Of a DNA stretch of 64,000 nucleotides, positions 6,697 to 52,500 are shown one piece after another. Location: the NCBI GenBank assembly GCA_002412495.1, contig DHVE01000054.1, positions 2,419 to 66,418 on the forward strand, given 5' to 3'. The stretch comes from Betaproteobacteria bacterium UBA5216 (GTDB lineage: Bacteria > Pseudomonadota > Gammaproteobacteria > Burkholderiales > SG8-41). Position 1 is the first letter of the stretch; the number at the start of each line of letters is the position of its first letter. Both the position numbers and the translations under genes were made by a program. The notes below the pieces were generated by a model. The model searched no databases. It saw only the letters and a program-made list of their open reading frames with translations, and was not told the DNA's origin.

Positions 6697-7371
6697 TCAC
6701 ACGGTGGTATGCCAATGTAATCCAAATGGCAGGTGTGGCGGTCCAAACAGAAAGTGCAAGACGCGACGATTGCCGCCACCGTGAATGCGCGTAGACGCAT
6801 GCAGTAGCAGCGGGCGCATCAGCAACGCAGCGCCCCGGTCCGCCGCGCACACCACCTCGGCGGTTGTTTCGCGCAGGCGTTCGATTTCGCCATCGTTCAG
6901 ACGGCCACTGCAATGCGATCGGGGGATCACGCGTAGCGGCCCCGCATCCGCCGGACACGCATCCAGATGAAGCCGTATCGCGACCAGACTTTCAAGCACA
7001 GCTGCAGGCGGTTGCGTGTGTAAAACGCCCTCTTTAACGGCCCATCCGCTGCACTCGGTGGCATCAACCCGCGCACGGACAGGAATGCCTATATCCTGAT
7101 GAACAGAAACGCCCCAATTCTTTTCGGCACTTTTCTCGAACAGCGTGCATTGCACAGCCGTAGTTGAAGCGCCAAGCAGGGGGGCAATCTTTACATGTGA
7201 TCGAAGGGTCTCTGCGAGACGCTGGCACCACGGCAATTGCAACAAGCTGCGCGAACCTGCTTTGGCGACAGCGAGTTGCGACACATTTTCAAGCGCTACA
7301 TCGCATGCAGCGGACGGAATAACATTCGCAATTAACTCGTAGCCCAGCTCCGTGAAGTGTTCAGTGCTCAT
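6697..7371 (-). CDS. phytanoyl-CoA dioxygenase (PhyH) family protein
   Basis: MSTEHFTELGYELIANVIP...VHQDIGIPV...LRVIPRSHCSGRL shows HxD and a distal H typical of PhyH-type Fe(II)/2OG oxygenases. ATG at 7369-7371. Confidence 0.75.
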   Translation of the reverse strand: MSTEHFTELGYELIANVIPSAACDVALENVSQLAVAKAGSRSLLQLPWCQRLAETLRSHVKIAPLLGASTTAVQCTLFEKSAEKNWGVSVHQDIGIPVRARVDATECSGWAVKEGVLHTQPPAAVLESLVAIRLHLDACPADAGPLRVIPRSHCSGRLNDGEIERLRETTAEVVCAADRGAALLMRPLLLHASTRIHGGGNRRVLHFLFGPPHLPFGLHWHTTV

Positions 7372-7393
7372 TTCGATGCAAAGGCTAGCATGA

Positions 7394-7422
7394 ATTGACA
7401 ACCCCAAGCACGCCAACGATAA
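7394..7422 (+). promoter_or_regulatory. candidate sigma70 promoter of the liv-type operon
   Basis: TTGACA (7394-7399), 17 nt, GATAAT (7417-7422), about 45 nt upstream of the substrate-binding protein ATG. Sequence match only. Confidence 0.45.
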
Positions 7423-7467
7423 TCAATTTTCCAGCACAAACAACAGCTTATCGATAGGGGGATCACC

Positions 7468-8712
7468 ATGAACCGCAGACAGTTAATCCACGCCGCCGCG
7501 GCCATTGCGACCCTGCTCGCGCTAACCGCTTGCGGCGACAAAGCGGCACCGCCCGCACCCAAAAAAGCCGACGCGCCGAAGGCGCCGGAGGTACAGGTGG
7601 TAAAGATTGGCGTGGCTTCGCCGCTGACCGGCGCACAGGCGCATATCGGCATCGATATCCGCAACGGCGTGCAGCTCGCGATTGAAGACGCCAACAAGGC
7701 CGGTGTCAGCATCGGCGGCAAGGCAGTGAAGCTGGAGATGGTGGCCGAAGACGACGAAGCGAATCCCACCAAAGCGACGACCGTGGCGCAAAAGCTTGCT
7801 GACGCCAAAGTCTCGGCCGTGGTAGGACACTTCAATTCCGGCGCGTCAATTCCGGCGTCGAAGATTTATGCGGATGCCGGCATTCCGCAGATTTCGCCCT
7901 CGAGCACCAATCCGGATTACACGCTGAAAGGCTACAAGACCACCTTCCGCGTGGTCGCGCACGACGGTCAGCAAGGCCCGACCCTGGGCCGCTTTGCACT
8001 CGATAAGCTCAAGGCGAAGACCATCGCGGTCATTGACGACAGCACGGCGTATGGCCAAGGTCTGGCGGACAACTTTGAAGCGGCGGTGAAAGTGGGCGGC
8101 GCCAAGCTGGTGGCGCGCGAGCACACCACCGACAAAGATACCGACTTCAAAGCGATACTCACCAAGATCAAGGGCAAGAATCCGGATCTCATCATGTTCG
8201 GCGGCATTGATCCGCAAGCCGGCCCGATGAAAAAACAAATGGCTGAACTCGGCATCAAAGTGCCGCTGATCGGCGGTGACGGCATGCAAACGCCAAATTT
8301 CATCAAGCTCGCGGGCGAGGCGTCCGAAGGTACGATGGCCTCGATCCCTGGCCTGCCGAAAGACAAAATGCCCGGCGGCACGGAGTTTCTTGCCAAGTAC
8401 AAGGCCAAGTTCAATGCCGAGGTCGAGTTGTTCGCGCCGATGGGCTACGACGCGGTGATGGTGTTTATCGAAGCGATGAAGCGCGCGGGTTCATCCGACC
8501 CGGCGAAGTTTCTGCCCGAAATCAGCAAAACCAATTACAACGGGGTGATCGGCCCCATCGCGTTCGACGAAAAAGGGGATCTCACCAATGGCCCGATAAC
8601 CATTTACGTGGTGAAGGGCGGCAAATGGGAGGCGCTGGAAACCGTTACGCCCAACACCGGCGCCAATAACACATCAAAGGCAGAAGCACCCAAGGACGCG
8701 GCGAAGAAGTAA
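7468..8712 (+). CDS. branched-chain amino acid ABC transporter substrate-binding protein (LivJ/K-like), probable lipoprotein
   Basis: Leader MNRRQLIHAAAAIATLLALTAC has a lipobox LTAC. The body (IGVASPLTGAQAHIG...VVGHFNSGASIPAS...IAVIDDSTAYGQGLA) is typical of the LivJ/K periplasmic-binding family. Strong RBS AGGGGGA. Confidence 0.9.
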   Translation: MNRRQLIHAAAAIATLLALTACGDKAAPPAPKKADAPKAPEVQVVKIGVASPLTGAQAHIGIDIRNGVQLAIEDANKAGVSIGGKAVKLEMVAEDDEANPTKATTVAQKLADAKVSAVVGHFNSGASIPASKIYADAGIPQISPSSTNPDYTLKGYKTTFRVVAHDGQQGPTLGRFALDKLKAKTIAVIDDSTAYGQGLADNFEAAVKVGGAKLVAREHTTDKDTDFKAILTKIKGKNPDLIMFGGIDPQAGPMKKQMAELGIKVPLIGGDGMQTPNFIKLAGEASEGTMASIPGLPKDKMPGGTEFLAKYKAKFNAEVELFAPMGYDAVMVFIEAMKRAGSSDPAKFLPEISKTNYNGVIGPIAFDEKGDLTNGPITIYVVKGGKWEALETVTPNTGANNTSKAEAPKDAAKK

Positions 8713-18280: not shown

Positions 18281-19996
18281 ATGCACGCCTATCGCCCCAC
18301 CCTCACCGGCACACGTCACATGATTTCAGCCGGCCATCACGCCGCCGCGCACGCGGGCTTCACGGTACTTGAGGCCGGCGGCAACGCGGTGGATGCCGGC
18401 GTTGCGGCGGGTATTGCGCTGGGTGTTTTGCAAACCGATCTGGTTAATTTCGCCGGTGTTGCGCCGATGATGATTTATCTCGCCGGCACGCGCGAAGTAA
18501 TCAACATCGACGGCCTCGGCACGTGGCCGAAGGCGGCGGACATCAACGTGTTCATTCAGCAGCATGGCGGCAAAATGCCGCCGGGTATATTGCGCACGGT
18601 GATTCCCGCCGCGCCTGATGCCTGGATTACCGCGCTGGAAAAATACGGCACCCTGAGTTTTGGCGAAGTGGCGCAAGCCGCCATTCGTTTTGCGCGTGAT
18701 GGTTTTGCCATGCACTGGCTGATGGCCGGATTCATTGAGCAAAACGAAGCGGAATACCGTCGCTGGCCCTCGAACACGCAAACGTTTTTGCCCAACGGTA
18801 AACCGCCGCGTGTTGGCGACCTCTTCGTGCAAAGCGAGCTCGGCCGTACGCTCCAATACATGGCCGACGAAGAAGCCGTGCAATCCGGCAAAGGCCGCGT
18901 CGCCGGATTACGCGCCGCGCGCAACGCGTTTTATCGCGGCGATATTGCTGCCGCCATCGCACGCTATCACCGCGAAAACGGCGGCTGGGTAACGATGCAA
19001 GACATGGCAGATTACACCGTTTCATTCGAGACGCCGCAGCGCACGCGCTTTGCCGATGTCGATCTGTATACCTGCGGGCCATGGTCGCAGGGCCCGGTGC
19101 TGCCGCAGGCGCTCAATGTGCTGTCCGGCATGAATCTGCGCGCGCTGGGCCATAACACGACGCCTTACATACACGCCGTGACCGAGGCGCTGAAACTCGC
19201 CTATGCCGATCGCCAGTGTTATTACGGCGATCCCAAATTTGTCAGCGTGCCGATGGATGCGCTGCTGTCGGTTTCGTATGCGGATCAACAGCGCAAGCGT
19301 ATCGATGCGCTGAAAGCTGCGCCGGGCATGCCCCAGCCCGGCGCCGTTGCCGGCCGCCCGGCCCATACACCGCAACTACCGCCGGCGGCGACGGGCAATC
19401 CACCGCCCGCGCCGGACACCTCATACGTCAGTGTGATTGATCGCCACGGCAATGCGTTTTCGGCGACGCCGAGCGATGCGTCATCCGCCACGCCGGTGAT
19501 TCCCGGCATCGGCCTGTGCCCTTCGTCGCGCGGCTCACAGTCGTGGTGCGATCCGAATCATCCCGCGTCCGTTGCGCCCGGCAAGCGGCCGCGACTCACG
19601 TGCAGCCCGGCGATGGCGCTGCGCAACGGCAAGGCCTACATGCCGTTCGGCTCGCCCGGCAACGATGTGCAGCCGCAGGCCATGTTGCAGGTATTTTTGA
19701 ATCTGCACGTGTTCGGCATGGATTTGCAGTCCGCCATCGAAGCACCGCGGTTCGCAACCTACAGCTACCCGTCTTCATCCGAGCCGCACACCTATCTGCC
19801 CGCGCGGCTCACCCTCGAAAGCCGCGTGCCGCGCGCAACCGGCGACGCATTGGCGTCACTGGGACACGACATCAAGTGGTGGCCCGAGCTCGAAGAAGCC
19901 GCGGGTGCGGTGTGCGCGGTACGCGTGAATCCGGAAACCGGCGTGCTCGAAGGTGGCGCCGATCCGCGCAGACTGGCTTACGCGTTGGGGTGGTAG
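18281..19996 (+). CDS. gamma-glutamyltransferase-family (Ntn-hydrolase) protein without obvious signal peptide
   Basis: HHAAAHAGFTVLEAGGNAVDAGVAAGIALGV plus a putative autoprocessing/nucleophile site PDTSYVSVIDRHGNAFSATPS. First ATG is at 18281; the track start at 18257 is a TTG. Confidence 0.8.
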   Translation: MHAYRPTLTGTRHMISAGHHAAAHAGFTVLEAGGNAVDAGVAAGIALGVLQTDLVNFAGVAPMMIYLAGTREVINIDGLGTWPKAADINVFIQQHGGKMPPGILRTVIPAAPDAWITALEKYGTLSFGEVAQAAIRFARDGFAMHWLMAGFIEQNEAEYRRWPSNTQTFLPNGKPPRVGDLFVQSELGRTLQYMADEEAVQSGKGRVAGLRAARNAFYRGDIAAAIARYHRENGGWVTMQDMADYTVSFETPQRTRFADVDLYTCGPWSQGPVLPQALNVLSGMNLRALGHNTTPYIHAVTEALKLAYADRQCYYGDPKFVSVPMDALLSVSYADQQRKRIDALKAAPGMPQPGAVAGRPAHTPQLPPAATGNPPPAPDTSYVSVIDRHGNAFSATPSDASSATPVIPGIGLCPSSRGSQSWCDPNHPASVAPGKRPRLTCSPAMALRNGKAYMPFGSPGNDVQPQAMLQVFLNLHVFGMDLQSAIEAPRFATYSYPSSSEPHTYLPARLTLESRVPRATGDALASLGHDIKWWPELEEAAGAVCAVRVNPETGVLEGGADPRRLAYALGW

Positions 19997-20035
19997 GGGC
20001 AACTGCTGCGCGCGAGGCGGGGTATGGCGTGAGTC

Positions 20036-20905
20036 TTATAGCCGGCTAGAAGCATCAGTAGTCGCAGACCTTTGTTTCTCCAGTATCACCAGCGCGATCC
20101 CGCCCAGTATGGCGACCGACGCCAATACCAGACGCAGGGTAAGTTGCTCGCCCAAAAGAAGAATGCCGCCCACCGCTGCTATGACCGGAACGCTCAGTTG
20201 CACGGTTGCCGCGCTGGTGGCTTTTAAGGCGGGCAGCGCGGTGTACCAAATTGCATAGCCGATGCCGGACGCCAGGGCACCCGACGCCACGGCATAGGCG
20301 ATGCCGGTGTTATCCAGCGTCGCGTGGTCATGCAGCAGCACGCTTACCACCGCCGCAATCGGCACGGCACGCAAAAAATTACCCGCCGTAATCCGCGTGG
20401 GATCGCCCGCGCCCCTGCCGCGCAGGGAATAAACGCCCCATGCCGCACCGGCGGCCAACATCAACAGCGCGCCGATCAAGGGCGGCGCCGCCAGCCCCGG
20501 CAGCAGCAACCCCACCAGGCCCGCGAGTGCGAGCGCCAGACCAACGATCTGCACTTTGCGGAACCGCTCGCCGGCCCACAGGCCGTGGCCGATCATGGTG
20601 GCCTGCACCGCGCCAAACAGCAACAGCGCGCCCGTCGCCGCGGTCAGGCTCACATAGGCAAACGAAAAACACACCGCATAACCGCACAAGGCCGCAGCCG
20701 ACAGCCAATTGCCGCTGCCGTGATTGGCGCGACGCGTCGCGCGCGCCACCAGCCACAACATGAGCGCGCCGGACGTCAATCGAATCAGCGTAAAACTCGC
20801 CGCATCAATGGGCGTGTGTTTGAGCGCAATCCGGCACAGCAGTGAATTGCCCGCAAACGCAATCATCGCCAGCGTGGTCAGGGTGATGAGGCGGGCGCGG
20901 GACAT
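20036..20905 (-). CDS. DMT-superfamily (EamA-like) transporter
   Basis: About 10 hydrophobic segments. MSRARLITLTTLAMIAFAGNSLLCRIAL and the internal duplication are typical of EamA. ATG at 20903-20905 avoids overlap with the upstream gene. Confidence 0.85.
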   Translation of the reverse strand: MSRARLITLTTLAMIAFAGNSLLCRIALKHTPIDAASFTLIRLTSGALMLWLVARATRRANHGSGNWLSAAALCGYAVCFSFAYVSLTAATGALLLFGAVQATMIGHGLWAGERFRKVQIVGLALALAGLVGLLLPGLAAPPLIGALLMLAAGAAWGVYSLRGRGAGDPTRITAGNFLRAVPIAAVVSVLLHDHATLDNTGIAYAVASGALASGIGYAIWYTALPALKATSAATVQLSVPVIAAVGGILLLGEQLTLRLVLASVAILGGIALVILEKQRSATTDASSRL

Positions 20906-20988
20906 CGAACGGGTTTTACAAGATCTTCGGGACGATGTGAACGTGCGGGTAAGTGTTCTACCGAACGGGGTGCCATCGGGCACCCCGT

Positions 20989-21468
20989 TCACAGGCCCAG
21001 TTCGGACAAGCCCGGATGTTCATCGGGGCGGCGCCCCAGCGGCCAGTGAAACTTGCGATCACCGGCCTGAATCGGCAGATCGTTGATGCTGGCTATTCTG
21101 CGATGCATGAACCCCTGTTCGTTGAACTCCCAGTTTTCATTGCCGTACGAGCGAAACCAGTTGCCCGAATCGTCGTGCCACTCATAGGCAAACCGGACCG
21201 CGATGCGATTGCCGTGAAAGGCCCACAGTTCTTTCACCAACCGGTAGTCCAGCTCTTTTTGCCATTTACGCCGCAGGAATTGCACAATGGATTCGCGTCC
21301 GGAAAGAAATTCAGAACGGTTTCTCCAGACGCTGTCCGGCGTGTACGCCAGCGAAACCCGCTCTGGATTTCGGGTGTTCCAGGCGTCTTCAGCCATGCGA
21401 ACCTTCTGCGCCGCAGATGCGCCGTCAAACGGCGGAAAGGGGGGTCTGGGTGGTTCGGCAGTGCTCAT
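20989..21468 (-). CDS. DUF1348-family (NTF2/SnoaL-like) protein
   Basis: [63 protein letters not shown] matches DUF1348 as I recall it. Strong RBS GAGGAG. Confidence 0.8.
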
Positions 21469-21486
21469 GCTGATCTCCTCCAGTAT

Positions 21487-21741
21487 TCAAGTGTGACTAA
21501 CGTTTGAGCCAATTGGCGGCGTGCCCACCAAAGCGCAGTCCGCACCCGACGTGCCGTACTCTCCGCGAGGGGCAACAGGCCCAAGGACAAGCGCGATACG
21601 GGCAACCGAGTCTTGAATCGATCGCAGGAGCCCGGCGGGATCGCACGAACGTAAAAGGCTGGACTTTGATCCGTGCGTAACACGAACCGATGATCCTTCG
21701 CGCGTTACGACTAGATCGAGGTCGGCATCGGTGAAAGGCAT
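21487..21741 (-). CDS. doubtful 84-aa ORF (possible partner gene, gene remnant, or non-coding)
   Basis: Open frame only. No SD, no recognisable family, GC-rich unlike the adjacent islet gene. Confidence 0.2.
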   Translation of the reverse strand: MPFTDADLDLVVTREGSSVRVTHGSKSSLLRSCDPAGLLRSIQDSVARIALVLGPVAPRGEYGTSGADCALVGTPPIGSNVSHT

Positions 21742-21806
21742 CCGTAGCAGGGAAATGGGCAGGTTTGCTGGAGTTGCTTAACGTGTCGCTCAGCCGCCGC
21801 TAACGG

Positions 21807-22775
21807 TTACACATCCTCATCTGTTTGCCTTGCCAGATGGGGTAGCGTGGCACGAATGGTAGCCTTGAGAGCGGAAGCGGCCATGTCCGGAGCGGCGGCA
21901 TCCCAGACAATTGTCAAATGATGGTTCGTGTCGAAGTGCGTCTTCGTTTCCTCAAACTTAGTGCGTTCGCATGTATAAATGACCGGTTTGCCAAGCCCTT
22001 CCGCATACCCAGCCTCCCAATAAGCGCCTAGGTTATCGTGCGTAAGATCTGCAACCAAGAAGTCGGAGCTTTGAATTTCGACTCGAAGTCGATCATCAAT
22101 TAATCCAGCTTTTGGAACATCGTCAAGCTTAAAAAGATCAAATCCGGCCAACTTCGCCGCAGGCTTAAGGACGTCGATTAGTAACCTCTCTAACACGGAA
22201 TCACCAAACTTCATTGCCATGAAAGCCTTCCTATAGGCAGCACTTCCTTTTGCGAGATCCTCATAGAACGTCCAGCCATGAAATGACAGTGTCGCCTTTG
22301 CATTGCCTTGTACCCCGATGGTCTTCAGCTGATGCCCTGTCAGCAGACCAACTGCGAAGAGATGATCTAGTATGAGCGCGAATCCGCTATCCGATTTGGC
22401 GCCGACTATGCTCGCATGCGTTCTCGGAGATATGTCGACAAGCTCCCCAGGTCCAGGAAGGGATTGAGCTAACCAACGGATCAAAAGGTCCGCCTGCTGC
22501 TGTGGCCGAGGCAGAGGTCGCTTTAGAACTTCCTCAATAGTCGCAGTAGAAAACATTACTTCCGAATTCACTTCTTGGGCACGTCGCAGGGCGTGGCTCA
22601 GCTTTGCCGACGCATCTGTCGCAGACGACAGTATTCCTGGAAGCGTTGCGATCAACGTGCGAGTGAGAACAAAGCGGCCACATCGAGGACAAGAGAAACG
22701 TGTTGCATCTCTCTCATCGGGAGTCGATGGCGAAGTGAGCAGCGGTGTATTACAGATCGGACAGTTGGCGCTCAT
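21807..22775 (-). CDS. zinc-ribbon protein with C-terminal nucleoside 2-deoxyribosyltransferase/TIR-like domain (uncharacterised)
   Basis: C5-x2-C8...C29-x2-C32 (CPICN...CPRCG). Residues about 183-292, AFMAMKFGD...SSDFLVADLTHDNLGAYWEAGYAEGLGKPVIY, fit the NDT/DNPH1-type pattern (beta1, acidic residue, N-x-G-x3-E-x-G-x-A-x3-GKP-VI). Hand-counted 60-nt lines give 37%, 52% and 47% G+C versus 65% in a flanking line. Confidence 0.75.
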   Translation of the reverse strand: MSANCPICNTPLLTSPSTPDERDATRFSCPRCGRFVLTRTLIATLPGILSSATDASAKLSHALRRAQEVNSEVMFSTATIEEVLKRPLPRPQQQADLLIRWLAQSLPGPGELVDISPRTHASIVGAKSDSGFALILDHLFAVGLLTGHQLKTIGVQGNAKATLSFHGWTFYEDLAKGSAAYRKAFMAMKFGDSVLERLLIDVLKPAAKLAGFDLFKLDDVPKAGLIDDRLRVEIQSSDFLVADLTHDNLGAYWEAGYAEGLGKPVIYTCERTKFEETKTHFDTNHHLTIVWDAAAPDMAASALKATIRATLPHLARQTDEDV

Positions 22776-22913
22776 CGCTGCGTTGTGTGGGAAATATAAC
22801 GTCTTGCTGAACGGCGGGCTAGGATGGTATTCATAGAGCCTATGGCGCGGGCGGCCCGTCGGTTCAATATAGAGTTATGTCTATAATACTCGTTACAAGT
22901 GTCCGATGCTTGA

Positions 22914-23849
22914 TCAGACGCCGGGAGCGGATGTGGCGAGCCAGTCTCTCGCCACCAGAAACGTATCGTATAAAGATGCTTCACGCGAACCCGCCTCCGG
23001 CTTCCAGTCATACCGCCAGTTCACCACCGGTGGCAGCGACATCAGTATCGATTCCGCCCGCCCGCCGGACTGCAGCCCGAACAGGGTACCGCGGTCATAG
23101 ACAAGATTGAATTCAACATAGCGCCCGCGGCGGTAGGCCTGAAACGCGCGCTCGGGTTCGCCATAGGGCAGCGCGCGGCGGCGCTCGACGATGGGGGCGT
23201 AGGCTTTGAGAAAATGATCGCCCACGCTTTGCATCATGGCAAAGCAGGTGACGAAATCGGGGGTGTGTACGTCGTCGTAAAAAATGCCGCCGATGCCGCG
23301 CGGCTCGTTGCGGTGTTTCAGATAGAAATAATCGTCACACCATTTTTTGAATTTAGGGTGCAGATCGGCGCCAAAGGGAGATAGTGCATCGCGGCAGGTT
23401 TGATGAAAATGGCGCGCGTCTTCTTCAAACCCATAATAGGGCGTGAGATCCATGCCGCCGCCGAACCACCACACGGCATCCGCGCCCGGCTTGACCGCGC
23501 AAAACAGGCGCACGTTCATGTGTACGGTGGGCACCATCGGGTTGCGCGGGTGCAGCACCAGCGACACGCCCATCGCCTCATACGAACGGCCCGCGAGTTC
23601 CGGGCGCGCGGCGGTTGCCGAGGGCGGCAGACCTTGCCCGAACACGTGCGAGAAACCGACGCCACCGCGCTCGAACACGTTGCCTTCTTCAAGGATGCAG
23701 GTGAGGCCGCCGCCACCGCCCAAGTTTGCAGGCCGCGTCCAGGCGTCGCGTTTGAAGGCTTTGCCGTCGAGCGTGGTCAGCGCATCGATGATGCGGGTTT
23801 GCAGCCCTTCGAGATAAGTTTTTACCGCTTGAGTATCCATAGTATCCAT
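22914..23849 (-). CDS. hemF: oxygen-dependent coproporphyrinogen III oxidase
   Basis: [33 protein letters not shown]...[15 protein letters not shown]...[13 protein letters not shown] are canonical HemF blocks. First ATG at 23849; the track start at 23858 is a TTG. Confidence 0.9.
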
Positions 23850-23882
23850 GGGGTGCAAGGATACCTTACCGCGACACCGGTG

Positions 23883-25178
23883 TTAGGGCTTGCGTGCACC
23901 GGCAGGGCCGATTGCGCGATAGCCGATATCCCGCCGCAGTTGCATGCCGTCAAACCGGATTTGCGCGGCAATTTCGTAGGCGCGTTTTTGCGCGGTGCGC
24001 ACGTTGTGGCCGAGCGCGGTGACGCACAGTACGCGTCCGCCGCTGATGACCACATCGTTGCCCTGCAATGTTGTGCCGGCATGAAACACGTGATAATCCT
24101 CGCCGGCTTCGCGTGATTCCGGAAGCCCGCTGATCACGTCGCCCTTGCGCGGATTGTCGGGATAACCGTGTGCGGCCAGCACCACGCCCAGCGCCACGCG
24201 CAGATCCCATTCGGCTTCGACTTGATCGAGCGTGCCGTCGATGGCGTGTTCGATCAGGTCCACCAAATCACTCTTTAAACGCATCATGATGGGCTGCGTT
24301 TCCGGATCGCCCATGCGGCAGTTGAATTCCAGCGTGTTGACCTTGCCATCTTTGGTGATCATCAACCCGGCATACAAAAAGCCGGTGTAGGGGATGCCGT
24401 CCTTTTCCATGCCCGCGAGCGTGGGCAAAATGACTTCGCGCATCGCGCGCGCGTGGATCGACGGCGTGACCACCGGCGCCGGCGAGTAAGCGCCCATGCC
24501 GCCGGTGTTGGGGCCGATATCGCCATCGCCCAGACGCTTGTGATCCTGACTGCTGGCGAGCGCCAGCGCGTGTTTGCCGTCGGCGAGCACGATGAAGCTG
24601 GCCTCCTCGCCTTCGAGAAAGGCTTCGATCACCACGCGCGCACCGGCCGCGCCCATTTTGTTGTCGATCAGCATCATATCGACCGCGGCGTGCGCCTCGG
24701 CGACGTTCATCGCCACCACCACGCCTTTTCCGGCGGCGAGGCCATCGGCCTTGATCACGATGGGCGCGCCTTGCTGGTCGATATAGGCGTGCGCTTCTTG
24801 GGCGTCGCTGAAAGTGGCGTGAGCGGCGGTGGGTATGCCGTGACGCTTCATGAAGCTCTTGGAAAAATCCTTGGAGCTTTCGAGTTGTGCGGCAGCTTGT
24901 GTCGGGCCGAAGATGCGCAGCCCGGCGGCGCGAAAGGCATCCACCACGCCGTCGGCAAGCGGCGCTTCCGGGCCGACGACTGTCAGTAACACATTGTTTT
25001 TATTGACAAATTCTATAAGGTCGGCGGTGCGTGTCAGAGGCACATTTTCCAGACCCTTTTCGCGCGCGGTTCCCGCATTGCCGGGCGCGACATACACTTT
25101 TGAAACGCGCGGCGATTGCAACAAACGCCACGCCAGTGCATGCTCGCGACCGCCGGAACCGATAACGAGAATTTTCAT
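23883..25178 (-). CDS. purD: phosphoribosylamine--glycine ligase
   Basis: MKILVIGSGGREHALAWRL...GPNTGGMGAYSPAP are PurD hallmarks. Confidence 0.95.
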   Translation of the reverse strand: MKILVIGSGGREHALAWRLLQSPRVSKVYVAPGNAGTAREKGLENVPLTRTADLIEFVNKNNVLLTVVGPEAPLADGVVDAFRAAGLRIFGPTQAAAQLESSKDFSKSFMKRHGIPTAAHATFSDAQEAHAYIDQQGAPIVIKADGLAAGKGVVVAMNVAEAHAAVDMMLIDNKMGAAGARVVIEAFLEGEEASFIVLADGKHALALASSQDHKRLGDGDIGPNTGGMGAYSPAPVVTPSIHARAMREVILPTLAGMEKDGIPYTGFLYAGLMITKDGKVNTLEFNCRMGDPETQPIMMRLKSDLVDLIEHAIDGTLDQVEAEWDLRVALGVVLAAHGYPDNPRKGDVISGLPESREAGEDYHVFHAGTTLQGNDVVISGGRVLCVTALGHNVRTAQKRAYEIAAQIRFDGMQLRRDIGYRAIGPAGARKP

Positions 25179-47575: not shown

Positions 47576-48688
47576 ATGCCTATTCTTAAAGAAAAATTTG
47601 GTGGGGTGATGACGAAGCTGGAGCGCTTGTTCCAAGCCAAATCGCCTCCTGTAATCGGCGTGGATATCAGCACGTCCGCCATCAAAATGGTAGAGCTGAC
47701 CGACCGCGGCAGCCATATGTATCAAATCGAGCGCTACGCAATCGAGCCGTTGCCGCGCGATTCCGTGGTGGAGGGAAATATAAACAATCTTGACGCGGTC
47801 AGCGAATCTCTTAAGCGTTGTCACGCCAAGCTGGGAAGCAGCATCAAAACCGTGGCCATTGCGCTGCCCAACGCTGCCGTGATTACCAAGAAAATAATGG
47901 TGCCGGGTGGTTTGACCGAAGATGAGATAGAAGTTCAGGTCGAAACCGAAGCCAATCAATATATTCCATTTTCGCTGGATGAGGTGAACCTCGATTTTCA
48001 GGTGCTTGGGCCGGCGCCAGGCAGTCCCGATGACATTGAAGTCATGATAGCCGCGTCGCGCAAGGAAAAAATCGAAGACCGGGTCGCCGTGTCGGAAGTT
48101 GCCGGACTCAAGGCGACCGTCGTCGATGTGGATTTGTTTGCCGCGCAATCTGCCTTTGAGCTGATTGAATCGCAGTTCCCCGAAAAGGGCAAAGACCAGA
48201 ACATTGCGATCGTGGACGTGGGCGCCACGTTCACAAATGTCAATGTACTGCGCAATGGTCAATCCATCTATCTGCGCGAGCAACCCTTTGGCGGCGCCCA
48301 GTTGACGCAGGAAATACAAGACAAATTCGGTTTGTCGCGCGAGGAGGCCGAAGTCGCCAAACGCGCTGGCGGCCTGCCCGACAACTACGAGACGGACGTG
48401 CTGAATCCATTCTTGGAAACTTTCGGCCTGGAAGTCGCACGCGCGTTGCAGTTCTTCTTTACCTCGACGCAGTTTAATCAGGTACATCACATCGTGTTGT
48501 CCGGTGGTTGTGCCGCCTTGCCCGGCGCCGATGCTGCCGTGGCAAAACGCACCCAAGTCAATACGGTCATCGCGAATCCCTTCGCCAATATGGCGTTGTC
48601 GTCCAAAGTGAGGCCGAAGAGCCTTGCTCAGGATGCACCGTCGTTGATGGTCGCTTGTGGATTGGCATTGCGGAGGTTCGACTCATGA
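47576..48688 (+). CDS. pilM: type IV pilus assembly protein PilM
   Basis: Actin-like ATPase fold (IGVDISTSAIKMVEL...) at the head of pilMNOPQ. An alternative ATG lies at 47609. Confidence 0.9.
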   Translation: MPILKEKFGGVMTKLERLFQAKSPPVIGVDISTSAIKMVELTDRGSHMYQIERYAIEPLPRDSVVEGNINNLDAVSESLKRCHAKLGSSIKTVAIALPNAAVITKKIMVPGGLTEDEIEVQVETEANQYIPFSLDEVNLDFQVLGPAPGSPDDIEVMIAASRKEKIEDRVAVSEVAGLKATVVDVDLFAAQSAFELIESQFPEKGKDQNIAIVDVGATFTNVNVLRNGQSIYLREQPFGGAQLTQEIQDKFGLSREEAEVAKRAGGLPDNYETDVLNPFLETFGLEVARALQFFFTSTQFNQVHHIVLSGGCAALPGADAAVAKRTQVNTVIANPFANMALSSKVRPKSLAQDAPSLMVACGLALRRFDS

Positions 48689-49272
48689 TTCGCATCAACC
48701 TGCTGCCGCATCGCGAGTTACGGCGTAAACAGCAACAAACACAGTTTTTTACGGCGCTCGGCGTGGTCGCCGTGATTGGCGCGTTAATCGCGTTCGGCAT
48801 TTATTATGTGCTGGACGAAGAACACGACAATCAGGTGAATCGAAACAAATATCTCACTGCGGAGATAGCCAAGGTCGACAAGGAAATCGAAGAAATCAAT
48901 CGCTTGAAAGAGCAGACCGCTTCCTTGCTGGCACGTAAACAAGTCGTGGAAACACTCCAAGGTAATCGTGCGGATACGGTGCATTTGCTGGATCAATTGG
49001 TGCGGCAGTTGCCCGATGGCATGTATTTGCGTTCGGTAAGGCAACAGGGATCTAAAGTGACCATTACGGGTGTTACCCAGTCCCAAGCGCGCGTGTCAAC
49101 ATTAATGCGCAATCTGGAGTCTTCACAGAAACTGGCTAGCCCGGCGCTGGTGGAAATCTCTGCCGCCGCTGCCGCCGCCAACGCGGCGCGCGCCAACAAC
49201 TTTACGATGACGGTGAATGTCGTCCGTCCCAAGCCTGCGGACGCGCAGGGTAAAGCGCCGACAAAAGGATAA
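48685..49272 (+). CDS. pilN: type IV pilus assembly protein PilN
   Basis: MIRINLLPHRE motif plus a single TM segment. ATGA overlap with the pilM stop. Confidence 0.85.
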   Translation: MIRINLLPHRELRRKQQQTQFFTALGVVAVIGALIAFGIYYVLDEEHDNQVNRNKYLTAEIAKVDKEIEEINRLKEQTASLLARKQVVETLQGNRADTVHLLDQLVRQLPDGMYLRSVRQQGSKVTITGVTQSQARVSTLMRNLESSQKLASPALVEISAAAAAANAARANNFTMTVNVVRPKPADAQGKAPTKG

Positions 49273-49278
49273 CTTGCC

Positions 49279-49920
49279 ATGACACTTGACGAATTACGAC
49301 GGCTGGATCCCAAGAAAATTGGCTCATGGCCGGTATTGCCTAAATTGGTGGTGCTCGGCGTCGTACTGCTGGTAATCCTCGGACTGGCATACTGGTTTGT
49401 GTGGCAAGACCAATTGGCCCAGAACGAATCCGAGCGCGCCAAGACCGAGCAACTGAAAACCACGTTTCTGGACAAGAAAAAAGTGGCTGTTGATTTACCT
49501 GCGTATCGCAAGCAGTTGGATGACATCGAAAAGCAATTTGGTGCGCTGTTGAAACAGTTGCCTGGCAAATCCGAGATGGACGCTTTGCTGACCGACATCA
49601 ATCAGGCTGGACTGGGACGCGGCCTGCAATTTGAACTCTTCAAGCCCGCACCCGCCGAAACCGTGAAGGATTTTTATGCGGAGTTGCCCATCACCATCCG
49701 CGTTACTGGCAATTACCATGATATCGGTGCGTTCGCTGGCGATATCGGCAAGCTCTCGCGTATCGTGACCCTCAATGACATTTCCATCAGCGGTCAAGGC
49801 ACCTTGGCGATGGATGCCACAGCCATGACATATCGCTATCTTGATGAAGCTGAAGTGGCACAAAAAAGGAGAGCAGCGGCGGCCTCGGCTAAGAAAGGCG
49901 CTCCGCCGCCCAAAAAATGA
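49279..49920 (+). CDS. pilO: type IV pilus assembly protein PilO
   Basis: N-terminal TM segment, coiled coil, and position in the operon. Confidence 0.85.
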   Translation: MTLDELRRLDPKKIGSWPVLPKLVVLGVVLLVILGLAYWFVWQDQLAQNESERAKTEQLKTTFLDKKKVAVDLPAYRKQLDDIEKQFGALLKQLPGKSEMDALLTDINQAGLGRGLQFELFKPAPAETVKDFYAELPITIRVTGNYHDIGAFAGDIGKLSRIVTLNDISISGQGTLAMDATAMTYRYLDEAEVAQKRRAAAASAKKGAPPPKK

Positions 49921-50429
49921 TGCGTAAATATCTCATACCGCTATTTGCATGTACCCTGCTATCGGCTTGCGGCGGTGAAAAGCATTCCGATTTGCGCGAG
50001 TTCGTTAAAAACTCGGACAATCTGCCGCGTGGTCGAATTCCGCCGTTGCCGGAAGTGCTGCCTTACGTGCCAGTCGAGTATACCGCTTTTGATCTGACCG
50101 ATCCGTTCAAGCCGCGAAAAATCGAGCCGCCGAAAGGCGCGGCCGTGGCAGGCGGTGTGCAACCCGACGTGAACCGCCGCCGCGAACCCTTGGAAGCGTA
50201 CCCACTTGAGGCGCTGAAAATGGTGGGAATTCTTAAGCAAAAGGGGTATTTCGCCCTGGTGAAAACCCCCGACAATAATTTGTTTCAGGTTAAATCTGGA
50301 AACTACTTGGGACAAAATTTCGGACGCATCACGGAAATTTCGGACGGCTCCATAAAACTCAGAGAAATCGTACAGGACAGCAATGGTAACTGGGAAGAAA
50401 AAGACCAGACCCTATTGCTGCAGGAATGA
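49917..50429 (+). CDS. pilP: type IV pilus assembly lipoprotein PilP
   Basis: Lipobox LLSAC. C-terminal ...YFALVKTPDNNLFQVKSGNYLGQNFGRI is PilP-like. ATGA overlap with the pilO stop. Confidence 0.8.
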   Translation: MMRKYLIPLFACTLLSACGGEKHSDLREFVKNSDNLPRGRIPPLPEVLPYVPVEYTAFDLTDPFKPRKIEPPKGAAVAGGVQPDVNRRREPLEAYPLEALKMVGILKQKGYFALVKTPDNNLFQVKSGNYLGQNFGRITEISDGSIKLREIVQDSNGNWEEKDQTLLLQE

Positions 50430-50442
50430 CCAGGAGAACAAG

Positions 50443-52500
50443 ATGAAAATTACCTATCCGTCGTTGTCTTTATCGTTGCGTGCGCGAAACTTCTTGCTCG
50501 CAATGCTGTTCGGAATCGGAGTGCATGCGGCAAATGCCCAGAACAGCATAGAGAGCATTAACGTATCTCCACAAAGTGGAGGCAAAGTGGTGGTTCGCGT
50601 GGGCTTGAAAGAAGCTCTGGCAACGCCCCCGGCAGGATTTACGGTAAACAATCCGCCGCGGCTGGCATTCGATTTTGCGAATACAGCCAATGCCATGGGC
50701 AAAAACGTACAGGACGTTTCCAATGCCGACGTGCGCCGTATCAATGTGGTGCAGGCCGGCAATCGTACGCGCATGGTTCTTGAACTGACTCGTGCGTTGA
50801 ACTATGAAACGCAGCTAGATGGCAAAGTAGTTCTTATCACGTTACAAGGAACAACGGCGGCGGAAGTGGGTGCTAGCGGCCAACGGTTTGCAGACACCGC
50901 TGTTATTGACCAAAAACATAGCTTGCGTAACGTCGATTTCCGTCGTGGTAGCGCGGGGGAGGGACGTGTCGTTATTGATCTGTCTGATAACCAGGTCGGC
51001 ATCGATTTACGGAAACAAGGCCGTTCAATTATTGTAGATTTCGTTAATTCTGACTTGCCGGCCAATCTGGCCAAGCGCTATGACGTTGCAGACTTTGGTA
51101 CGCCTGTCCAATTGATCGAGGCGACAAAACAAGGGAACAGTGCCCGCGTGGTGATTACGCCGACCGGCAATTGGGAGCATTCCGCGTATCAAGCCGACAA
51201 TCGCTTTATCGTGGAGGTGAAGCGGGTTGTGGAAGATCCGAATCGGCTGGTGCAGAAAGGGTTTGCCGGGGAAAAACTTTCTCTTAACTTTCAAAACGTC
51301 GAGGTTCGATCAGTATTGCAAGTGCTGGCTGATTTTACGGGCCTGAATATCATCACCAGTGATTCGGTGACCGGCAATTTGACGCTTCGGCTTAAAGATG
51401 TACCTTGGGATCAGGCCTTGGATATTATTCTGCGTAGCAAGGGCTTGGATATGCGCAAGGAAGGCACCGTCGTCTGGATTGCGCCGCGCGACGAACTGGC
51501 GACGCGTGAAAAATTGGCCCTAGAGTCACGTTCGCAGATATCTGATCTGGAGCCGATGCAGACCGAGCGATTCCAGATCAATTACCAGAAAGCTGATTTA
51601 ATTGTGCCGCAGCTTATCGGGACTGGCGGGGCCGCTGCTGCAAACCGTCTGCTGTCTAAGCGCGGTAGTGTCACCGTTGATGCTCGATCCAATCAGCTTT
51701 TTGTGCAGGACACGCCTTCGCGCCTTGAAGATGTGCGACGCCTGATTCGTGCCATCGATATCCCGGTGCGCCAGGTAATGATCGAGGCCCGGATAGTTGA
51801 AGCATCGGACACTTTCAGCCGTAATCTGGGCTCTCGCCTAAGTTATGTGGACAACACGGCGAATCAGATTGGTTTGCCGATAAACGGTTCAAACCCGTTA
51901 CGGCTAGGCGTTGGTGGAACTAGCAGTGCGCCAATTGGCGGCCCGGTGGGGACCTTGTCTACTGTTCTATTTAATAATAAACAAACCCGCTTTCTGAATC
52001 TTGAATTGACGGCGTTACAAGCAGACGGCAAGGGCAAGATAATTTCCAGCCCGCGGGTTATTACCTCTAACCAGTCCGAGGCGACCATTGAAGATGGCAC
52101 TGAGATTCCCTATCAGCAGGCGTCATCCAGCGGTGCAACAGCTGTATCGTTCAAAAAAGCCACGCTTTCACTTAAAGTAAAACCGCAGGTTACACCCGAC
52201 GATAACGTCATAATGACATTGCGAGTGAATAAGGATTCACGAGGCGAGGTCACAAATGGCGTGCCTGCTATCAACACAAAGCAGGTATCGACAGAGGTGT
52301 TGGTGGAAAACGGAGGTACCGTAGTTCTCGGGGGCATCTACACCTCTGAAGAGCGATCCGACACGTCCAAGGTGCCGGTGTTGGGTGATTTACCTTACGT
52401 GGGCTTTCTGTTCAAGAACAACCAAAAGGTGGATGATCGGCGCGAGTTACTGGTATTTATCTCACCGAAAATCCTCAAAGATAATCTGAACGTGCGGTAG
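50443..52500 (+). CDS. pilQ: type IV pilus secretin PilQ
   Basis: Signal peptide, AMIN-like N-terminal repeats, and secretin C-domain (VLVENGGTVVLGGI...VPVLGDLPYVGFLFK). ATG at 50443. Confidence 0.9.
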   Translation: MKITYPSLSLSLRARNFLLAMLFGIGVHAANAQNSIESINVSPQSGGKVVVRVGLKEALATPPAGFTVNNPPRLAFDFANTANAMGKNVQDVSNADVRRINVVQAGNRTRMVLELTRALNYETQLDGKVVLITLQGTTAAEVGASGQRFADTAVIDQKHSLRNVDFRRGSAGEGRVVIDLSDNQVGIDLRKQGRSIIVDFVNSDLPANLAKRYDVADFGTPVQLIEATKQGNSARVVITPTGNWEHSAYQADNRFIVEVKRVVEDPNRLVQKGFAGEKLSLNFQNVEVRSVLQVLADFTGLNIITSDSVTGNLTLRLKDVPWDQALDIILRSKGLDMRKEGTVVWIAPRDELATREKLALESRSQISDLEPMQTERFQINYQKADLIVPQLIGTGGAAAANRLLSKRGSVTVDARSNQLFVQDTPSRLEDVRRLIRAIDIPVRQVMIEARIVEASDTFSRNLGSRLSYVDNTANQIGLPINGSNPLRLGVGGTSSAPIGGPVGTLSTVLFNNKQTRFLNLELTALQADGKGKIISSPRVITSNQSEATIEDGTEIPYQQASSSGATAVSFKKATLSLKVKPQVTPDDNVIMTLRVNKDSRGEVTNGVPAINTKQVSTEVLVENGGTVVLGGIYTSEERSDTSKVPVLGDLPYVGFLFKNNQKVDDRRELLVFISPKILKDNLNVR

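Follow-up and report, generated by a model that had tools for sequence, protein, structure and literature searches.

The window analysed here is a stretch of 64,000 nucleotides of contig DHVE01000054.1 from Betaproteobacteria bacterium UBA5216, and the gene under study is an ATG-started open reading frame (ORF) of 969 bp and 322 aa, found in the ORF listing of the window at 21807-22775 on the minus strand. The ORF is placed between a DUF1348/SnoaL_2 gene (20989-21468) and hemF (22914-23858), both labels being taken from the precomputed Pfam annotation of identical contigs. The interval between these two genes is 1,445 nt and consists of the ORF with 138 nt upstream and 338 nt downstream of it. 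The purD and purH genes are located upstream of hemF, and an EamA transporter and a gamma-glutamyltransferase (GGT) gene are located past DUF1348. An earlier reading of the bare sequence (the first-pass annotation) had described the position, strand, start, length, and solitary siting of the ORF in the same way. The features at the level of the locus are as follows.

21807..22775, minus strand: focal ORF with zinc ribbon, helical linker, predicted winged helix, and a domain like nucleoside 2-deoxyribosyltransferase (NDT) and DNPH1 (ORF listing, conservation, and AlphaFold2 (AF2) model)
21787..22802, minus strand: ORF plus 27 nt upstream and 20 nt downstream, the sole DNA common to the closest homolog, at 92.5% nucleotide identity (nucleotide comparison)
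19997..22940, no strand: variable segment between the hemF and GGT flanks, holding EamA, DUF1348, the spacer, and the focal ORF (comparison with relatives)

The base composition of the ORF was different from that of its surroundings. Its G+C content (GC) was 51.8%, compared with 59.7 ± 3.2% for the 45 other called genes of the window (z = −2.5). At third codon positions (GC3) the value was 49.7% compared with 69.7 ± 5.4% (z = −3.7), which puts the ORF at the bottom of the 46 window genes. Within the ORF, 60-nt windows ranged from 35% to 68% G+C, in agreement with the hand counts from which the low GC had first been claimed. A similar difference was observed across the family, as GC was below that of the flanks in 68 of 74 homolog loci, with a mean gap of 6.1 points.

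The closest homolog (94% amino acid identity) belongs to another uncultured betaproteobacterium (L004; compared loci carry L numbers) and has a wholly different context. The DNA common to both copies, 21787..22802, is the horizontally moved unit. Related lineages were chosen by HemF (84-86% identity), and the junction beside hemF, which the first-pass annotation had proposed as a check, was without the focal gene in three of three (L108, L109, and L111). The dus-fis-purH-purD-hemF order was retained in the relatives with 81% nucleotide identity to window 28243-22941, and L108 also retained the GGT-TctC-racemase-UROD block (window 19996-16553). Between these flanks L108 had DM13 and a small ORF (6904-7915), L109 had two small ORFs and PrpD (6919-8008), and L111 had nothing at the site downstream of hemF (6913-6918). 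The content of 19997-22940 thus varies from lineage to lineage, and the focal gene, which differs in composition, was added to this variable spot on top of the rest. By analyzing composition, transfer of the bare ORF, and the empty site, which are three independent tests, it is clear that the focal gene was acquired horizontally, and the foreignness suggested at first reading is thereby upheld. Flanking direct repeats, a tRNA, or a recombinase were not found in the window.

Public gene callers gave proteins of 137, 249, or 322 aa at this locus on contigs with an identical DUF1348 protein (L087-L095). The 1,445-nt DNA is the same in all of these contigs (0-1 differences compared with window 21469-22913). 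Pseudogene polymorphism was therefore ruled out as the source of the three lengths, which result from the choice of start by the gene callers; this choice was probably misled by the atypical composition of the ORF. The 137-aa calls retain the NDT-like part alone, so database entries of the family are partly truncated.

Domain architecture of the protein

The protein is divided into the following parts.

22662..22775, minus strand: Cys4 zinc ribbon, C5-x2-C8 ... C29-x2-C32, residues 1-38 (conservation, weak zinc-ribbon family matches, and models)
22506..22661, minus strand: helical linker with a conserved LSH-x-[IL]-R motif, residues 39-90 (BLASTP and tblastn)
22242..22505, minus strand: predicted winged helix-turn-helix, residues 91-178, with H-S-H-H-S-S order and a C-terminal helix (model and Foldseek)
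21846..22229, minus strand: Rossmannoid domain of the NDT/DNPH1 superfamily, residues 183-310, predicted N-glycosidase effector (PF05014, DNPH1 motif, Foldseek, and PHROG)
22014..22016, minus strand: GAG codon of Glu254, at the NDT/DNPH1 catalytic-nucleophile position (alignment to the Glu of DNPH1 'YELG')
21921..21941, minus strand: residues 279-285, T-H-F-D-T-N-H, part of the family-specific THFDTNHH loop, with H286 next (alignments)

Residue conservation was read from three alignments (A1, A2, and A6), of which A6 reaches relatives at 22-28% identity and includes Bacillus, Hydrogenimonas, and prophage copies as distant members. C5, C29, and C32 were invariant in all three, and C8 showed no variation in A1 and A6, with conservation of at least 90% in A2. 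These are the places where the zinc-ribbon cysteines had been put by the first-pass annotation. The N-terminus gave weak matches to zinc-ribbon families, and the ribbon was modelled as two beta-hairpins, both in the full-length AF2 model and in the N-terminal model. The full-length model, made from 40 homologs, had a mean predicted local distance difference test score (pLDDT) of 81.7 and a predicted template modelling score (pTM) of 0.74.

A separate model of residues 1-178 had a pLDDT of 92.6 and showed the ribbon hairpins, two long helices, and then the H-S-H-H-S-S arrangement with its final helix. All Foldseek matches of this N-terminal model in the PDB were winged-helix proteins (MarR, PadR, LmrR, Pex, and the winged-helix domains of ORC and Cdc6), with modest E-values of 0.01-0.1 and TM scores to target of up to 0.66. 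From the model, the middle region of the protein is predicted to be a winged helix similar to those of MarR, PadR, and ORC. The three-part architecture described at first reading was thus retained at both ends, the ribbon and the NDT-like domain, but its 'unknown middle domain' was not, as this part is modelled as a winged helix. The linker (residues 39-90) and the winged helix are common to Rhizobium proteins that end in DUF4145, which are discussed below.

The C-terminal 130 residues are assigned to the NDT superfamily of N-glycosidases and transferases by PF05014, the alignment to DNPH1, and model-based Foldseek comparisons with PDB and viral structures. The PF05014 match over residues 195-272 had an E-value of 3.5e-5 and a score of 24.3 bits, which is below the gathering score of 28.8 (Pfam); a precomputed match to the same family is present on many homologs. 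Among PDB sequences, the only meaningful local match was to rat and human DNPH1/Rcl over the active-site strand and helix, where DNLGAYWEAGYAEGLGKPVIY of the focal protein was aligned to PSLGVGYELGRAVALGKPIL of DNPH1/Rcl. The query segment VEIQSSDFLVADLTHDNLGAYWEAGYAEGLGKPVIY was aligned to DNPH1/Rcl NWLQQADVVVAEVTQPSLGVGYELGRAVALGKPILC, and E254 falls on the catalytic Glu. The C-terminal motif was nearest to that of DNPH1, a deoxynucleoside monophosphate (dNMP) N-glycosidase; from sequence, the substrate may equally be NAD+, adenine nucleotides, dNMPs, or DNA. In a search of all PDB sequences with a profile of 58 family members, no match reached significance (best E = 0.28), and the fold was therefore assigned from structure comparison and the Pfam motif.

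In the Foldseek search of the PDB, the top matches were a Chroococcidiopsis NDT (8pqt, 1.5e-3) and human DNPH1, with E-values of 1.5e-3 to 1e-2 and TM scores to target of 0.56-0.65. The NDT/DNPH1-like fold claimed at first reading is supported by these top positions and by PF05014, though the latter match is below its gathering score. The TIR domains of SARM1 and RPP1 and generic Ras-like Rossmann folds were interspersed among the weak PDB matches. Three matches below 1e-3 were obtained from BFVD (predicted viral structures). The best was a CMP/hydroxymethyl-CMP hydrolase (1.8e-4), with an rmsd of 3.3 Å over 137 columns, followed by an NDT (3.6e-4); the third carries the label dUTPase. The domain also matched phrog_16139 (1.3e-18), and such PHROG profile matches reflect distant phage NDT-like proteins. 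With the PADLOC model PDLC00733 ('Effector/TIR'), distant full-length homologs on plasmids of Hydrogenimonas and Bacillus reached 7e-18 and 1e-12, but the window protein only E = 0.011. No Pfam TIR family was matched in the window protein at E<=1. The TIR-like relationships of the domain are at the level expected for the TIR/NDT assemblage.

Conservation was concentrated around the predicted active site. E254 was invariant in A1, A2, and A6, and D243 did not vary in A1 or A6 and reached at least 90% conservation in A2; both residues are where they had been placed by the first-pass annotation. The motif around E254, D-x-G-x3-E-x-G-x-A-x3-G-K-P, was retained. Y252, G256, F281, and D282 were invariant in every alignment, down to 22% identity. 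The invariant positions of A6 were the four cysteines, G33, G167, F185 and A187 (beta-1), D243, Y252, E254, A255, G256, A258, G260, C269, F281, D282, and W291. F281-D282 belong to the THFDTNHH loop, in which pLDDT was low at residues 282-284. The loop is a signature of the family, and a counterpart elsewhere was not identified.

The focal protein has the same Rossmannoid fold (Foldseek) as DNPH1/Rcl, the NDTs of PF05014, and the phage CMP/hydroxymethyl-CMP hydrolases of the MilA/BlsM type. The DNPH1/NDT active-site layout, x-[SN]-L-G-x-x-[YW]-E-x-G-x-A-x-x-L-G-K-P with Glu at the nucleophile position, is common to it as well. Compared with DNPH1 and NDT, the focal protein stays below the PF05014 gathering threshold, has its own THFDTNHH loop, and has a non-metabolic context. 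It also carries the 180-residue zinc-ribbon/winged-helix N-terminus, which DNPH1 and NDT enzymes do not have. A glycine-rich phosphate loop after beta-1 is a feature of DNPH1; the focal protein, as read from its sequence, is without such a loop.

Family distribution, neighbourhoods, and domain shuffling

The indexed homolog search gave more than 5,000 matches at E<=1e-3. The best 120, at 61-93% identity, were full-length (about 320 aa) and all of them unnamed or labelled 'hypothetical'. An exhaustive search of 1.84 billion representatives gave 7,591 clusters at E<=1e-3, 3,851 at 1e-10, and 707 at 1e-30, counted at 50% identity, and nearly all of the top 150 cluster matches were collinear along the full length. 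With one genome per species, carriers were 329 of 185,579 species (0.18%) in more than eight phyla, including Beta- and Gammaproteobacteria, Chlorobiota, Planctomycetota, Verrucomicrobiota, Nitrospirota, Nitrospinota, Chloroflexota, Latescibacterota, and others. The distribution is sporadic and cross-phylum. An Enterobacteriaceae homolog gave no match in 5,426 E. coli genomes (blastn). Distant full-length copies were observed on Bacillus mycoides megaplasmids and on a Hydrogenimonas plasmid, and those of B. mycoides carry the PGAP label 'nucleoside 2-deoxyribosyltransferase'. Public annotations of the family are either 'hypothetical protein' or this automatic label. The architecture of zinc ribbon, winged helix, and NDT was not described in the literature searched. 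The concept of single-gene sensor-effector immunity with a TIR/NDT-like effector is already known, having been predicted since 2013, and the combination of zinc ribbon, winged helix, and NDT is a new form of it.

Over 82 loci, crude gene calling with all-against-all clustering gave no universally conserved partner gene, and the recurrent neighbour blocks were lineage-specific. No salvage or nucleotide-metabolism neighbours were observed, in line with the absence of metabolic partners described at first reading. The downstream small ORFs were not homologous between loci, and a conserved small antitoxin-like partner was therefore ruled out. One block recurs in L013 (8100-20877), L001, L014, and L097. 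It consists of a serine recombinase, a 132-aa ORF, the focal homolog, an 86-aa ORF, DUF499 (1050 aa), DUF3780, a DUF1156 methylase, and a PLD/SNF2 helicase. Its hosts are Accumulibacter, Brevifollis (Verrucomicrobiota), an unbinned contig, and an IMG/VR 'viral' contig; as the same island is present in Accumulibacter and Brevifollis, the element crosses phyla. Further loci combined the focal homolog with HNH and Abi_C proteins (L004), with a resolvase, Abi_C, a Type ISP restriction enzyme, and ParA (L105), or with AAA_21 (AbiEii-like) and HNH on the Hydrogenimonas plasmid (L086). Chlorobiaceae loci had an SNF2 helicase and a PglX-like methylase near the homolog, and two loci had NERD/UmuDC and HicAB nearby. 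A prophage copy (L099) adjoins tail, tape-measure, and terminase genes, and another copy (L100) adjoins an integrase.

The two halves of the protein showed different rates of change. Mean pairwise identity in the family was 31% for the zinc ribbon, 25% for the linker, 29% for the winged helix, and 60% for the NDT core; in a closer set these values were 49%, 51%, 62%, and 80%, respectively. The N-terminal half evolves at about double the rate of the effector half. Both halves were also observed apart from each other. Focal residues 29-145 matched L084 8028-9221 on the Rhizobium beringeri plasmid pRlX1 with 31% identity (BLASTP 3e-12). The encoded protein (L084 8028-9224, 398 aa) joins the focal N-terminal module to DUF4145 (PF13643, 6.5e-12), a HEPN-type RNase domain, and has a second CxxC...CxxC segment as well; from its sequence it would be a RAZR-like effector with an extended sensor. 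An NTase-HEPN gene is located 1.5 kb from it. Similar matches of the N-terminal module were found in Sinorhizobium and Paracoccus plasmids (tblastn). A homolog search with the L084 N-terminal module gave no match, within the word-index limitation of that search, and because of this the modularity rests on a handful of plasmid records.

Focal residues 185-292 matched the N-terminal domain of plasmid 'TRAFs-binding/DUF4071/TPR' proteins with 28-31% identity. These proteins are carried by IncP, other conjugative, and Acinetobacter plasmids, in clusters with TIR-domain proteins. The clusters on an E. coli IncP plasmid (NZ_CP147111.1; L112 5010-8780) and on an Acinetobacter plasmid (L113 3980-6824) have two or three TIR-domain proteins each, and the former also has a DUF4231 protein and a recombinase. 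The TPR/DUF4071 relatives are placed beside TIR and SLATT genes. The DUF4071/TPR homolog is widespread on enterobacterial conjugative plasmids. The C-terminal focal domain is homologous to these plasmid proteins and to PDLC00733 'Effector/TIR'; unlike in the plasmid proteins, its sensor is a zinc ribbon and predicted winged helix and not TPR, and the focal gene is solitary and not part of a multigene cluster. The variable sensor, the conserved effector, and the shuffling with HEPN, TIR, and TPR modules are the marks of conflict systems. Such marks have been described as classical for these systems, and NDT fusions to Abi N-terminal domains have been predicted as toxins (Anantharaman et al. 2013, PMC3710099).

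Proposed function and rival explanations

NDT and DNPH1 enzymes act as dimers or higher oligomers, and NDT-family active sites are completed across subunit interfaces. We propose, by analogy with RAZR, Swarozyc, and the retron Ec86 effector and with a confidence evenly divided between belief and doubt, that the focal gene is a stand-alone, horizontally acquired single-protein abortive-infection sensor-effector. The zinc ribbon and winged helix would recognise a cue of the invader. A protein assembly of the phage, such as a portal or a recombinase ring (compare RAZR and Swarozyc), is one candidate; invader DNA is another, as the winged helix may bind DNA instead of protein. Binding would gather the NDT-like domains together, and because the active sites of this family are completed across subunits, trigger-driven oligomerisation would be a natural on-switch. 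The assembled enzyme would cleave N-glycosidic bonds in an essential pool, such as NAD+, ATP and adenine nucleotides, or dNMPs, and loss of this pool would halt the growth of the infected cell and phage replication.

In RAZR (PD-T7-4), a Cys4 zinc finger sets phage specificity for a DUF4145/HEPN effector with the same pattern of a variable N-terminus, and activation occurs when a 24-mer ring forms that encloses portal or recombinase rings of the phage (PMC13017515). The focal protein is similar in being a single protein with a Cys4 ribbon in its most variable N-terminal part and a conserved C-terminal effector. Its N-terminal module is homologous to the Rhizobium proteins ending in DUF4145, the RAZR effector type. 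Unlike RAZR, the focal effector is NDT-like and not a HEPN RNase, and a predicted winged helix is added. RAZR effectors have an R-x4-6-H motif, and no DUF4145/HEPN match was found in the focal protein (Pfam). Neither the window protein nor the Rhizobium protein (L084) matched the PADLOC PD-T7-4 models, so homology to RAZR itself is unsupported.

Swarozyc has a TIR/NDT-like NADase with a catalytic Glu and an HTH/winged auxiliary domain, and assembles side by side on the phage portal (bioRxiv 10.64898/2026.05.01.722283). Swarozyc (DUF4062) and the focal gene are both single genes that join a Rossmannoid TIR/NDT-like effector bearing this Glu to a winged-helix domain, which is a predicted one in the focal protein. 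In the focal protein the order is reversed, with the sensor at the N-terminus, and a zinc ribbon is additional; no DUF4062 Pfam match was found in it at E<=1. The NDT-like effector of retron Ec86 uses catalytic Glu106 in a dimer and depletes nucleotides (bioRxiv 10.1101/2023.08.16.553469). Ec86 (Retron-Eco1) likewise has an NDT-like domain with Glu in a nucleotide-targeting oligomer, joined to a nucleic-acid-binding lobe. Unlike the retron, the focal gene stands alone between hemF and DUF1348, with no reverse transcriptase nearby, no Rfam ncRNA, and no PADLOC retron match, and its domain order and sensor domains differ.

Several observations weigh against the proposed abortive-infection role. 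The strongest is the arrangement in nine Planctomycetota loci with both etf genes called (L046, L048, L052, L054, L056, L057, L060, L062, and L077; e.g. L060 9065-14580), where the focal homolog is located between etfB and etfA on the same strand. The carriers are Pirellulales, Phycisphaerales, and Sedimentisphaerales, and the gap to etfB is from an overlap of a few nt up to about 110 nt at all but one of these loci. Pairwise identity of these copies (58-72%) tracks that of EtfB (69-89%), with r = 0.52. This suggests that the gene has long been inherited vertically here, as defence genes seldom are, and it is the main observation that a defence function leaves unexplained. An acyl-CoA dehydrogenase and a HAD phosphatase then follow in several of these loci. 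In addition, many copies, that of the window included, are alone among housekeeping genes, for example at NYN/argS (Gallionellaceae), tldD/pmbA (Methylococcales), and cNMP-binding/metH fragments. When 148 ORFs near the homologs were compared with 148 far from them, PADLOC models numbered 119 and 36, but this difference is inflated by redundant models, as the output lists models and not genes and is dominated by redundant PD-T4-6 kinase and DrmD helicase models; the Pfam neighbours of the near set were mostly housekeeping.

The effector is also conserved far beyond the norm for immune genes of fast turnover, its PF05014 score is below the gathering value, and ordinary DNA binding is equally compatible with a winged helix. 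The window protein had no significant match in PADLOC v2, where E = 0.011 was the best value; the absence of a named defence system, as noticed at first reading, was thus found again, with no model for this architecture. No family member was characterised in the literature searched. None of 50,697 phage genomes carried the family (tblastn), and IMG/VR viral contigs gave five loci only; both results count against the proposal only in that an argument from prophage cargo is lost, and are neutral for defence as such. Overall, the stand-alone defence gene suggested by the first-pass annotation keeps its support from fold, architecture, foreignness, and solitude, and meets one real anomaly in the etfB-etfA copies. 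Several defence, prophage, and plasmid contexts add to its support, but the etfB-etfA copies are apparently vertical, which would not be expected of a purely mobile defence islet.

Some of these observations give weight to a non-immune enzyme of nucleotide metabolism or DNA, either a DNPH1/MilA-like N-glycosidase for sanitation or salvage or a DNA-tethered base-excision enzyme, which would spread horizontally since it is self-sufficient. The nearest sequence and fold matches are DNPH1, NDTs, and CMP/hydroxymethyl-CMP hydrolases, the catalytic domain is extremely conserved (60-80% identity), and PGAP labels distant homologs as an NDT; the stable, apparently vertical etfB-etfA siting and the many housekeeping positions fit as well. 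We nevertheless consider such an enzyme unlikely. Salvage or nucleotide partners do not adjoin the gene and no neighbour is conserved, the family is present in 0.18% of species only, with absence from close relatives and foreign GC, a fast-evolving N-terminal half is not needed for salvage, and HEPN, TIR, and TPR conflict modules are recombined with either half. A further alternative is a conflict gene that is not specifically anti-phage, such as an addiction or stabilisation toxin or an anti-plasmid or anti-conjugation effector whose N-terminal half restrains the activity. Plasmid copies (B. mycoides megaplasmids and the Hydrogenimonas plasmid), the occurrence of C-terminal-domain relatives on conjugative plasmids, IncP among them, and neighbours such as ParA with a resolvase, serine recombinases, an integrase, HicAB, and Abi_C point in this direction. 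Most copies, however, are chromosomal and solitary, no antitoxin-like small ORF is conserved, the gene callers placed no gene in the 338-nt downstream spacer, and stable etfBA-embedded copies are unlike addiction modules, which makes this explanation decidedly unlikely.

Rossmannoid NDT/SLOG domains are ligand sensors in ThsA-type proteins. The protein might accordingly be a DNA-binding regulator, with ribbon and winged helix on an operator and the NDT-like domain as a silent nucleotide sensor (SLOG/LOG-like), and the MarR/PadR-type fold and an AT-rich palindrome upstream of the gene would agree with this. The palindrome, TATAGA-GTTATG-TCTATA, is located at 22868-22885, where the first-pass annotation had taken it for a possible promoter or operator. 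A perfect inverted repeat with 6-bp arms had P ~0.15 in shuffles of the 138-nt spacer and such repeats occur ~0.52 times per 138 nt across the window, and the palindrome is outside the DNA common to the closest homolog. As it is not above chance and lies outside the conserved unit, its role as an operator is not supported. MarR and PadR proteins are dimeric with conserved genomic partners, and the focal gene has none, neither a conserved target gene nor a divergent partner adjoining it. Down to 22% identity, no variation was seen in the Glu at the catalytic position or in the rest of the NDT/DNPH1 active-site motif, which speaks for catalysis, and a regulatory role is thus very improbable.

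If the proposed abortive-infection function is right, a very widespread one-gene system would be added to bacterial immunity, with the first stand-alone NDT/DNPH1-type effector outside retrons and with a zinc-ribbon/winged-helix sensor. It would be a third independent test, after RAZR and Swarozyc, of small sensors activating effectors by assembly on phage structures, and would give better annotation for thousands of 'hypothetical' and 'nucleoside 2-deoxyribosyltransferase' entries. The 969-bp gene is self-contained and easily testable, with Glu254, the Cys4 site, and the THFDTNHH loop as mutational handles. With the etfBA-embedded Planctomycetota copies, an immune effector that may have been domesticated would be tractable to study, which is rarely the case. 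A bolder form of the proposal, which we regard as quite improbable, would make the zinc-ribbon/winged-helix/NDT family a major single-gene immunity of environmental bacteria. Its members would oligomerise on a phage structure or invader DNA as a template and would attack a pool other than the NAD+ targeted by TIR and SIR2 (e.g. dNMPs or modified dNMPs, as DNPH1 does), and one lineage would have been domesticated between etfB and etfA of Planctomycetota, where its housekeeping role would be connected with the flavin/AMP cofactors that ETF uses.

Initiation region and a second low-GC patch

No sigma-70-like promoter or intrinsic terminator was found by consensus scan in 21300-23100. No Rfam match was obtained in 19500-24000, and the spacer was unstructured (z = +1.75). 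The 15 nt before the ATG had no recognisable Shine-Dalgarno sequence (CCCACACAACGCAGCG-ATG; window 22776-22835), and 24-27 nt upstream of the ATG were conserved with the close homologs in L004 and L006. This hints at a non-canonical yet conserved translation-initiation region upstream of the focal ORF.

A second low-GC patch was observed in the window at 47576-52500, with GC of 0.51-0.54 and GC3 of 0.55-0.65. It was ruled out as a relative of the focal islet, as it is an ordinary type IV pilus (pil) operon. PilM, PilO, PilP, and the PilQ secretin were recognised by Pfam, and pilN is presumably located in the gap between pilM and pilO.

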